A DNA stretch of 64,000 nt, from positions 57,536,001 to 57,600,000 of the forward strand of contig OZ024748.1 of NCBI GenBank assembly GCA_964016885.1. The letters run 5' to 3'. Under the pieces are notes generated by a model. The model had not been told where the DNA came from. It worked only from the letters and a program-made list of their open reading frames with translations, and made no database searches. This DNA comes from Eledone cirrhosa (taxonomy: Eukaryota). Made by a program: the position numbers and the translations under genes. Each line of letters opens with the position of its first letter. Within the stretch, counting starts at the first letter, position 1. Shown one piece after another: positions 42,543 to 46,094 of this stretch.

Positions 42543-45131
42543 TAGTTCTCATCTAAAGCTTATTCCACAATAGCTATAGGAAAATAATTAGTTTCCTTTA
42601 AGAAAAAAAAAAAAAAAAAAAAAAAATTAAAAGTTAAACGTGTGGTTTTCTTGCTGTCATGTTATACTATCCAGACCACATTTGTTTACTTTAGATAAAG
42701 TATAACTTTGTATAAAGGTGGTATGCTCTGACCACATCGGCTTTAGTATAAGTGCATTATAAACTTAGTGAGTAGTCTCCTAATATTAATATCTTGAAAT
42801 TTCATAGACATTGTTAGCACGGCTAAATACATTATATGGACAATCTTAATTCTGGTATTCTGTGATGTGTATCTGATATTAACTTCTTTAGTTTTCTGTG
42901 GTTAGGTATGTTTTATATAATTCACACTTTAATTTCCGTATGGTGTATCTTAGTAATTTTAATTTATCTTCTTCTCCTTTCAAGTATTTGTCGAGATTGT
43001 TACTTATTTTTCTTATTCGAACCTTTTGAGTTTGAATTCATATTAAGTTGCACTTCGACATATTGATATTTCAACAATGATGTCATATAAAACAGCCACT
43101 TCTCAGTTTATTTTTATCTTTTCAATCGGTTCTAAACCCCATCTGTCATGACTGGGGTATCTGTAAACCTGTCAATCCCACCTTTGTTTATATCAGGGTC
43201 GTCTGTCCATTCATCAATTGTAAAATTCGCCCTTTAAATCCATCCATCCTGCCTACTCTTCAGTTTTACAGACTCAATACAAGACCACATCTCCATCTAT
43301 ATTACTGCTCTGTCCAGTTGGTCATCGTTCTACCCGTCATCTCTACATTGACATAAGAAAGCAGACATAGCCGAAATTATAAAACGATTAGTCTTTTAAT
43401 CTCATTTCACGCCTGCAAAACAATAATAGCCCACATGTTTCTTGCTATTAAAAATATAATAGTCAACAAACAAGAAACATTGAGAAAAGACATTACCCCC
43501 TACCCTAATAAAAAGCAACAACACCAACGAAATAGAACTGTTAATGCACATTTACTTTTGGCAAGCATCCTATCTATATCTTTCGGAAACAATAAACAGA
43601 TTTTTAATTGTGCTGTTGTCTCTCAACTTCAAACGGAGAAGACTGTCTGAATGGTGAACCGAAAAACAATAATTTTAAACATTATTATAATAGTTGTAAC
43701 ATAAAATATAAAGAAGTCAGTAATAACAAAAAAAATGCAACTCCAATTATAATGAAATAAAGAATTATAGCAAATAAATATATAGAAAAGATTCTATTAT
43801 GAACAGGAAATGAAGCCGACATATCTTTTGAGTTTTTTGCCAATACAATAATTACAAAATTATTCGACTTCAATATCTGAAAGTCACATCTATTTATGTA
43901 CAAAAGACATGAGATCTAAATTGTCTGTCCATCAGTCTATTTCGTTCAATATCTGTCTGTATGTCTGTCCGTCTGTATGTATGTGTTGCTGCCAATCTGT
44001 TTATATACCTATCTATATAAATATTTAGCAACCACTCTCTATGACTGCCTATATTTTTGTTTGACTCTCGATAGGAAGAACAAAAGAAGATATATGGCAA
44101 GAGGTATGTGAATTCTATTATAACTAAAAGGCTATACAGTGAATCAAGTGCCAGTAATTTCGTGCTTAACTGCACATGTCAATAACCTTTTGACGAGTGA
44201 GACTTATCCCCAAACTCTCGGATGTCCAGCCAGTGACGCCGCTATATATACATATAAGCTCATACACACATATATACGTGCGCGCGCGCACACACACATA
44301 CACACATATATATATATATATATATATATCAGTGGCGAAGGGTAACCTGGAAAGCAGAGCATGTAGTCCAATCGCCATGGCGGAAAGTGAGGTTGTACAG
44401 CCTACCCCCCCATTTCCCTCTAAACGACCCTCCCAGTCAAAGCCGCATGTAGTGTTATCTAGTGTGTGTGTGTGTATGTGTTATCTTTTTATGTGTCTAC
44501 GATTTAGAAAGCAGCCAAAATTCTGCTTGCTTCAACCGACGCAATTGATCAACTCAAGACTCTATAACGCATGCGCAGACCCCTCGCCCCTGATATATAT
44601 GCATATATTTATATAAACCATATATTTGACATAATCTACGTGCAACTGCCCCTATTGCGAATAACGTATTGTGTACATTTTGATTCCCTGGGCTTATGTT
44701 CAGATATTGTCTCATAGATTGACAAATGTGAGCAGTTGGAGCCGTAATGAATAGCATTCCTGTTTACTAATAAATACGCACATAGACGCACACAGACATA
44801 CACAACACCCATACACAGCATCCACCCACCCACGTGTTTGAGCTTGTATAACTCATATGCCACCAATCTCAATTAGAGCTATGTAAATATATGGTGTGAT
44901 TAATATCAATAGATAGGTGGAATCTCTCTCTCTCTCTCTAATATATATATATATATAACTGAACAAAAAAGAAAAACGAACACAGACATATACATGTATG
45001 TGTTCAAATCGTAATGGACCAGAATCGCTAAGGTGAAAAAATACTAACTACAGACAATAGGGTTTTCTAGACTCAATTTAAGAATAAATAAATAAAAATA
45101 AATACAAACCAGTATTGTGGTAACTACCCAT

Positions 45132-45212
45132 CACCCGGACGGTTTTTGATAGAACCGTTTCGCAATATTATTTGTGAAGAGGTTTATCAAATTCCTAGCT
45201 CATCAGCGGGTG
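45132..45212 (-). ncRNA. Canonical type I hammerhead ribozyme, intact
   Basis: Minus: cacccg CTGATGA gc-taggaatttgataaacctcttcacaaataatatt-gc GAAA cggtt-ctatcaaa-aaccg TC cgggtg; all core nucleotides, 6 bp stem I, full stem III, GUC site. Confidence 0.93.
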
Positions 45213-45480
45213 AAGAATTAGAATCCTGATCACTTCTAAATAAAATAAAGAACTGGATAGTGTGTGTATATGTAACGCACATGGTTTTCGAACTTAGAGC
45301 GTCGCGCAGACTCACGCCACGTTAATTCGTAGAGCTAATTCAAATGTCGTGTAGACCCGGCTGCTAGTTTTAGTGGCGTGAGTCTGCGCGACGTGTTAAA
45401 TTCGAAGATCATGTGCGTTACATATACACACACTATCCAGTTCTTTATTTTATTTAGAAGTGATCAGGATTTTAATTGTT

Positions 45481-45759
45481 CACCCGCTGATGAGCTAGGA
45501 ATTTGATATACCTCTTCACAAATAATTGTTTCTACTTTAGGCACAAGGCCAGCAATTACCAGTGCATTACTGGTACTTTATTTTATCGACCCCGTAAGGA
45601 TGAAAGGCAAAGTCAACCTCGGCGGGATTTGAACTCAGATCGTAAAGGGACGTAACTATGCTGGAAAGCATGGCGTCAAACCCTCTACCGATACTGCCAA
45701 TCCATCTACCTCTTCACAAATAACATTGCGAAACGGTTCTATCAAAAACCGTCCGGGTG
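45481..45759 (+). ncRNA. Same hammerhead on plus strand, interrupted by SINE in stem-loop II
   Basis: cacccgCTGATGAgc at 45481 and gcGAAAcggtt..aaccgTCcgggtg at 45728-45759. Confidence 0.85.
45526..45706 (-). mobile_element. SINE family A with 17 bp TSD
   Basis: TSD tacctcttcacaaataa 45509-45525 / 45707-45723; empty site preserved in the left arm. Confidence 0.95.
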
Positions 45760-46019
45760 ATGGGTAGTTACCACAATACTGGTTTGTATTTATTTTTCTT
45801 GATTTATTCTTAAAATGAGTCTAGCAAACCCTATTGTCTGTAGTTAGTATTTTTTTCACCTTAGCGATTCTGGTCCATTACGATTGGAACACATACATGT
45901 ATATGTCTGTGTTCGTTTTTCCTTTTTGTTCAGTTATACTATACGCCTCGGAAAAACCTTTTTCCTAGAGCTAATTTGACTGTAATGAGACTATTTTGAG
46001 TTTCTAACACAATACATGC

Positions 46020-46094
<75 letters not shown>

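Follow-up and report, generated by a model that had tools for sequence, protein, structure and literature searches.

A hammerhead palindrome in the Eledone cirrhosa genome is one insertion of a dispersed, ORF-less repeat family with PLE-type ends

Metazoan non-LTR retrozymes and EN+ PLEs are the closest described systems to the repeat reported here. Such retrozymes are ORF-less units a few hundred bp long with a type I hammerhead, are low in GC, are predicted to form self-paired circles and coexist with PLEs (PMC7229834; bioRxiv 10.64898/2026.07.22.740005), and a general link between retrozymes and PLEs has been argued in vertebrates (bioRxiv 10.64898/2026.07.22.740005). Insertions of EN+ PLEs have been described as partial tandems in which a 5'-truncated copy is inverted and only one end has a tail, with a (TA)n target and two fixed 3' ends (PMC3846280, PMC8557442, PMC11167929). 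In vitro, a PLE protein that is predicted to be a dimer nicks and extends both strands; its two internal start sites mark the limits of the tail, and it requires the RNA 3' of these sites; in a bulk assay no difference in start site was seen between the strands (PMC11167929). The same sources and the 2026 preprint, as far as their text is available, leave open how tandem and inverted PLE insertions are built and which RNA signal allows retrozymes to borrow a PLE protein (PMC8557442, PMC11167929).

In this study, we revisited a palindrome in a 64,000-nt stretch of contig OZ024748.1 (the window), for which an initial annotation had hinted at a PLE- or retrozyme-type monomer with an inverted copy at its 5' side. 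That hint was right in kind, but the unit is longer than had been thought and no next unit follows. The palindrome (~44950–46024) is a single insertion of a dispersed, ORF-less family and a real, ordinary copy of it; its features are collected in Table 1. The arms of ~367 bp around a 52-bp spacer were found as proposed (44954–45320 and 45373–45938), and the view that an assembly artefact is unlikely also held, because, with the SINE set aside, 17 of 368 aligned columns differ between the arms and the locus is thus not an assembly mirror. The boundary at 45938 was placed too early, as the element runs ~85 bp further, to the (TA)n tract at 46024. A monomer of ~440 bp had been suggested, whereas tandem loci give a unit of 519–521 bp with one type I hammerhead per unit, and the tagagctaatt motif, which was then read as the beginning of another unit, belongs to two similar hairpins within one monomer, of which it forms the 3' strand. 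Site A corresponds to window position 45938 and site B to ~46024. The spacer opens inside hairpin B, whose 5' strand has been truncated away, the inversion junction has a microhomology of 1 nt, and hairpin A of this copy has a single broken pair, at 45946.

Table 1. Features of the palindromic insertion, in window coordinates
Feature	Position	Strand	Remark
Left (TA)n target microsatellite	44941–44953	.	from sequence
Inverted 5'-truncated copy, monomer 153–519	44954–45320	−	stops at site A, tail-free
Type I hammerhead, intact	45131–45213	−	stem I 45213–45207/45137–45131; activity predicted
Helix P	45174–45233	−	5' flank 45233–45218 complementary to loop II 45191–45174; covariation
52-bp 'spacer', monomer 101–152	45321–45372	+	5' start of direct copy
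Direct copy to site A, monomer 153–519	45373–45938	+	interrupted by SINE
Second hammerhead	45480–45760	+	predicted cut after 45753
SINE, 181 bp	45526–45706	−	17-bp target duplication 45509–45525/45707–45723
PLE-type tail, monomer 1–85	45939–46023	+	site A to site B; this end only
Hairpin A (GGCTC–inner stem–TA bulge–GAGCT type)	45945–45972	+	just 3' of site A
Right (TA)n target microsatellite	46024–46090	.	site B merges into tract

The head of the SINE, on the minus strand, looks A/B-box-like when compared by eye with the consensus, and the element probably resembles octopus SINEs. At least 15 further matches to this SINE are present in the window, and a tandem pair of it with a period of 206 lies at 26087–26519.

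A family search of the 3.0-Gb genome returned 2,239 candidates, of which 40 were scored, and the best copies are 90–96% identical; matches to the hammerhead core extend over subfamilies with identity down to ~68%. The unit is without coding capacity (longest stop-free frame 55 aa), its GC content is 36%, and as a circle it is predicted to fold better than 40 shuffles (z −4.2). Every intact copy terminates in (TA)n, either at site A or ~85–92 nt further on at site B, and the 5' ends are variable. Two consecutive complete hammerheads on the same strand were found at three of 52 mapped loci (L012, L021 and L103), and the tandem extent is at most ~1.8 units over the 52 and a further, overlapping set of 69 mapped loci; the window copy is a sub-dimer offspring. 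Of the loci chosen only by end A, 26 of 39 have an inverted arm, as do 24 of the 30 chosen only by end B, and the inverted form is the majority form of the family. The partial tandems, inverted 5'-truncated copies, one-end tails and microsatellite targets are those of EN+ PLE insertions, as are the two fixed 3' ends. No ORF with RT and GIY-YIG was found within the unit or contiguous with it, and none of 12 loci with divergent hammerheads had a contiguous ORF.

Based on these properties, the repeat is a dispersed, non-autonomous PLE family of the non-LTR retrozyme type, which is a known general kind; it shares the lack of an ORF, the type I hammerhead, the low GC content, the predicted self-paired circle and the coexistence with PLEs with the retrozymes introduced above. 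Unlike those retrozymes, for which long tandem arrays are described, the family is dispersed, does not exceed 1.8 units at the mapped loci and mostly has an inverted arm (PMC7229834; bioRxiv 10.64898/2026.07.22.740005). Its unit is larger than the 150–450 bp given in the available text of PMC7229834 and within the 51–972 bp of the preprint, and its partner is indicated by terminal hairpins rather than by the pLTR homology of known retrozymes. It differs from the EN+ PLEs, as far as these are described in the sources at hand, in having no RT–EN ORF and in a tail of ~85–92 rather than 30–40 nt.

The minus-strand hammerhead of the window copy has a CUGAUGA core (45206–45200), GAAA and a GUC site, a 7-bp stem I, a stem II of 2 bp and a loop II of 34 nt, and a stem III of 5 bp plus an A–U pair (45157–45153/45144–45140), with a predicted cut between 45138 and 45137. 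The intact core, 5-bp stem III and GUC site claimed earlier are therefore borne out on this strand. A 'fully canonical' hammerhead had been reported on each strand; the minus copy is indeed intact, but the plus copy is split by the SINE in loop II, which grows from 34 to 232 nt through a 198-bp insert (181-bp SINE plus 17-bp duplication). The word canonical fits neither copy, as both were built with the 2-bp stem II and 34-nt loop, neither has an Rfam hammerhead match and neither is the predicted minimum-energy fold. Rfam gave no match at gathering score in the whole window and no hammerhead at E values up to 10 between 44800 and 46100. The hammerhead fold of the window copy lies 9 kcal/mol above the predicted minimum, and in none of the copies with a computable full three-stem fold is the hammerhead the predicted ground state. 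The repeat has the CUGANGA, GAAA, NUH and three helices of a type I hammerhead; its helix II of 2 bp, 34-nt loop and helix III of 4–6 bp depart from the canonical metazoan form with its small loop II, in which helix II has 4 bp and helix III 1–2 bp according to the available text of PMC4209133.

Judged from sequence, the motif is nevertheless far beyond chance, because exact matches to core and stem II number 1,101 genome-wide, as opposed to 0 for the reversed pattern, and because there is covariation in stems I and III. Over 28 copies these stems are 92.3% paired with 19 two-sided cells, a level reached in 0 of 500 shuffles, although relatedness alone can inflate such a test; core and stem II were in the search pattern, so that the lack of variation in them carries no weight.

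When 15 divergent units are folded to a consensus, a further helix is predicted between the 5' flank of stem I and loop II (helix P). Counted together with the hammerhead in 18 sequences, it has 16 pairs, seven of them with two-sided changes, and is 78% paired. A swap test with 19 non-redundant copies out of 82 gave a mean energy of −13.3 kcal/mol for own pairs and −11.7 kcal/mol for crossed pairs (P = 0.002). The helix covaries across subfamilies and is weak in the window copy, which ranks 11th of 19 in the swap test. It crosses stem I and reaches almost to stem II, and it may be either a pseudoknot of the kind described in PMC3088659 or an alternative off state, the latter being considered because of its length. 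The pseudoknotted hammerheads in the available text of PMC3088659 have a 2-bp stem II and a pairing between the peripheries of stems I and II, as does the window family; here the pairing spans ~16 bp or more, unlike in those ribozymes, and could serve to switch the ribozyme off instead of acting as an activating pseudoknot.

For the ends of inverted insertions, loci were picked by one terminus only, which avoids selection through the partner end. The end-A set consists of 39 of 57 matches, with 14 loci that were already in an earlier set and four others left out, and the end-B set of the first 30 of 140 matches. When read by hand, the A-selected loci had end B as partner in 21 cases and end A in none, with five unclassifiable and 13 without an inverted arm; among the B-selected loci the partner was A in 18 and B in one (L176), five were unclassifiable and six had no inverted arm. 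As three loci are common to both sets, the tail is at exactly one end in 36 of 37 inverted insertions, with 10 of the 69 end-selected loci unclassifiable. Rule-based calls on the 80 earlier loci gave 30 two-ended insertions, namely 27 A/B, two A/A and one B/B (binomial P = 4e-6), and two of these three exceptions look like errors of the rule. The exceptions to the one-tail pattern are L028 (A/A) and L176 (B/B). This near-strict end rule likely records how PLEs copy themselves into the genome. A DNA transposon of the foldback or MITE type, with a TA target and terminal inverted repeats, might also be expected to have inverted arms between TA sequences, but arm length ranges from ~10 to 600 bp, there are partial tandems, the inverted arm is missing from 19 of the 69 end-selected copies, and the ends are unlike, rather than being matching terminal inverted repeats, in the 36 of 37 insertions; we hold this explanation to be extremely improbable.

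The two end sites have a common signature. Just 3' of site A, and again just 3' of site B, the sense strand contains a hairpin with the arrangement GGCTC–inner stem–2-nt bulge–GAGCT, and the two hairpins are spaced 86–88 nt apart in 25 of 27 cases. Covariation in hairpin A is modest (20 sequences; 97% paired, one pair with six two-sided changes, 13/500 shuffles), the outer stem having been part of the selection for this set. The twin-hairpin pattern was found in 0 of 200,000 shuffles, a figure that overstates its significance since the pattern was written after both elements had been seen.

An ORF at window 29069–29896 led to a PLE family, H1, for which there are 77,055 candidates (140 scored) and many open 713-aa frames genome-wide; on the plus strand, this ORF with its 3' UTR to ~30200 is a 5'-truncated H1 copy. 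The H1 protein has RWR, DKT and CxCX5C motifs, with GIY-YIG at its C terminus, and the element targets (TA)n. By these motifs H1 is assigned to the Hydra clade, for which the available text of PMC8557442 gives RWK-like, DKT, CxCX5C and GIY-YIG motifs; (TA)n targeting, which the repeat also displays, is described there for the clade as well. At the pLTR–ORF junction of H1, upstream of the ORF, there are two ends, and a GCTC...GAGC hairpin comes after each of them, with a spacing of 87–90 nt in 20 junctions, and by hand reading of 62 loci the two-ended copies are A/B in 17 of 18, the exception being L243 (A/A). The repeat thus resembles H1 in its twin hairpins, their spacing and the one-tail rule, but elsewhere in the unit no homology to it was detected. 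A hammerhead-like motif is found ~45 nt upstream of H1 end A; its core is changed, with A for U at position 4, whereas that of the repeat is intact.

A second Hydra family, H2, has a GCTC–stem–TA–GAGC hairpin just 3' of a TAA run and upstream of the ORF, followed by a second, imperfect hairpin ~150 nt on, as compared with ~88 nt in the repeat. H2 looks recently active: at L304–L311 it encodes 714 aa, and there are 26,153 candidates, many near-identical copies and tandem units of ~4.3 kb. Its UTR contains two hammerhead-like motifs.

A profile of 15 monomers (nhmmer) gave no convincing match in the UTRs of 12 H1, eight H2 and 11 Neptune loci, and the idea that the repeat is a direct deletion derivative of H1 or H2 was rejected, as nhmmer detected no homology to the pLTR body. 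A 71-nt blastn match of 69% between the monomer and the H1 3' UTR was dropped as it was absent from the profile search, and L124, in which a broken H2-like ORF directly adjoins the repeat, was not taken for a chimera, as it did not show a far end with a tail. Because the short hairpins, their spacing and the one-tail behaviour are common to both, H1, as an abundant Hydra-clade PLE, is the likely mobiliser of the repeat. As the monomer profile finds no homology in the Hydra UTRs, we infer that the link is one of common signals, similar to that between SINEs and LINEs, and not of direct descent.

The mobiliser could instead be a Neptune-clade or unsampled PLE, with the same insertion anatomy and a convergent or accidental match to the Hydra hairpins. 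Neptune-type PLEs are abundant, several families with RT and GIY-YIG end in (TA)n (the best 150 of 10,596 GIY-YIG candidates were scored), some have a 2-bp GC stem II followed by GAAAC as in the repeat, and the monomer has no body homology to H1 or H2. However, the GCTC...GAGC pair is absent from the one Neptune pLTR–ORF junction tested, and in the families read the Neptune tails are ~40–55 nt, compared with ~90 nt in the repeat; we regard a mobiliser other than a Hydra PLE as quite unlikely. A Neptune parent, suggested by family-like pieces next to the GIY-YIG loci L039, L057, L064 and L070, was rejected because the pieces had inserted separately, next to (TA)n tracts or within them, and so was an RT fragment in L024 as the parent ORF, again a separate insertion of this kind. 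At L024, L039, L057 and L064, family members and Neptune 3' ends share a (TA)n tract in which they lie tail to tail; several PLE types thus use one target in a nested fashion. The 3' UTRs of L037–L064, L068, L073, L076 and L077, which represent three Neptune-type families, have hammerhead-like motifs with a U3–A8 core swap and a palindromic CCGG stem III; this swap has been described in Schistosoma PLEs (PMC4209133, available text). A fourth family (L070, L074 and L075) has a standard minimal hammerhead core.

In our preferred reading, which we consider probable, this is a protein-free hammerhead repeat that inserts in the manner of a PLE and is likely mobilised by a Hydra PLE, the palindrome being made during insertion. 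A source locus with two hammerheads on the same strand would be transcribed and would self-cleave to give unit-length RNA, which would likely circularize. A PLE protein, likely as a dimer, would then bind the two similar hairpins just 3' of A and B and nick both strands of a (TA)n tract, with one cDNA starting at A and the other at B. Joining of the two 5'-truncated cDNAs head to head through short microhomology would produce a palindrome with the A–B tail at one end. Copies longer than one unit, up to ~1.8, would fit the circular or multimeric template that has been proposed for such elements in the available text of PMC4209133 and PMC7229834. Among 78 inversion junctions, 31 overlap by 1–7 nt, five overlap by more, seven are blunt and 35 have extra bases, some of which are an artefact of the reference boundary. 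At these junctions arm ends cluster in one 20-nt bin, monomer 441–460 (27 of 156; ~window 45013–45032 in the left arm), and this 5'-truncation hot spot may reflect pausing of the RT or a pseudo-palindromic site of joining.

The same family and the same PLE mobility could also be combined with an arm made by self-priming fold-back and a one-sided tail left by endonuclease resolution at A and B. Fold-back has been proposed for rotifer Penelope from palindromes at junctions (PMC3846280), the tail has been ascribed to EN-mediated resolution (PMC8557442), and some of our junctions are near-symmetric (L186, L200 and L221). Most junctions, however, join unrelated positions (153 and 100 in the window copy), the tail in vitro matches two RT start sites (PMC11167929), and the hairpin 3' of each site is on the sense strand; on balance we judge fold-back unlikely. 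Returning to two cDNAs with separate starts, we suggest only tentatively that the tail is the footprint of a dimer on the two hairpins, each subunit priming one strand, that the retrozyme parasitizes Hydra PLEs by keeping no more than these hairpins and their spacing, and that the long covarying helix between loop II and the 5' flank controls the ribozyme.

In the literature covered, which takes in few subscription papers, we found no description of this family, of a counted one-tail rule or of twin hairpins; this could be affected by the Hydra hammerhead and consensus files that accompany PMC8557442. The one-tail rule, the twin hairpins common to the repeat and a Hydra-clade PLE, and the covarying loop II helix go beyond that literature; relative to the available descriptions of EN+ PLEs, the one-tail pattern has here been counted and is near-strict, and a duplicated hairpin marks both ends. 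These three features make an open mechanistic question testable. The family offers a 520-nt substrate and a candidate partner with many open 713-aa frames, together with the specific prediction of two hairpins and two start sites, one per strand.

Both ribozymes of the window copy face outward from the centre, and the antisense arm is therefore transcribed before the ribozyme on either strand. The read-through transcript is predicted to fold as a very stable hairpin (~−670 kcal/mol), and forcing the hammerhead costs 106–108 kcal/mol, both for the whole palindrome and for transcripts stopped just after the ribozyme. Because the antisense arm is made first and because of this cost, the transcript is predicted to become dsRNA without self-cleavage. 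The initial annotation had envisaged either co-transcriptional self-cleavage or collapse into dsRNA; collapse is the predicted fold and self-cleavage finds no support in the energies. The copy is predicted to be a dead end, as it has no same-strand ribozyme pair, one of its ribozymes has been hit by a SINE and its read-through RNA is predicted to be dsRNA. Divergent hammerhead pairs occur four times among the first 100 of the 1,101 core matches, and in Schistosoma PLEs paired hammerheads 100–700 bp apart on opposite strands have been described (PMC4209133, available text); on these grounds, the two-strand arrangement is a by-product of insertion.

The stability of this hairpin would suit a locus co-opted by the host as a dsRNA source, giving an ADAR or siRNA substrate, or as a ribozyme switch. 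The inversion, however, is the majority form of the family, the arms have drifted (17 of 368 columns) and gained a SINE, and arm copies at 30 loci have no A-to-G excess as an A-to-I imprint (5.9 A-to-G and 6.8 T-to-C per 1000), a test that bears on retrotransposed templates only; co-option is in our estimate very improbable. Three sequencing runs, the kind of which is not on record, gave a depth of ~9 in the unique flank and a pile-up on the SINE, like genomic DNA; as the locus was not spanned by any piece and repeats were passed over, these runs are uninformative on expression, circles and editing.

Elsewhere in the window, a 299-aa frame at 13554–14450 on the plus strand has C2H2 zinc-finger matches, and its start, we presume, resembles the C-terminus of a LINE. 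Other type I hammerhead-like motifs with a short palindromic stem III, unrelated to the family, lie at 5379 and 10816 on the plus strand and at 27355 on the minus strand.
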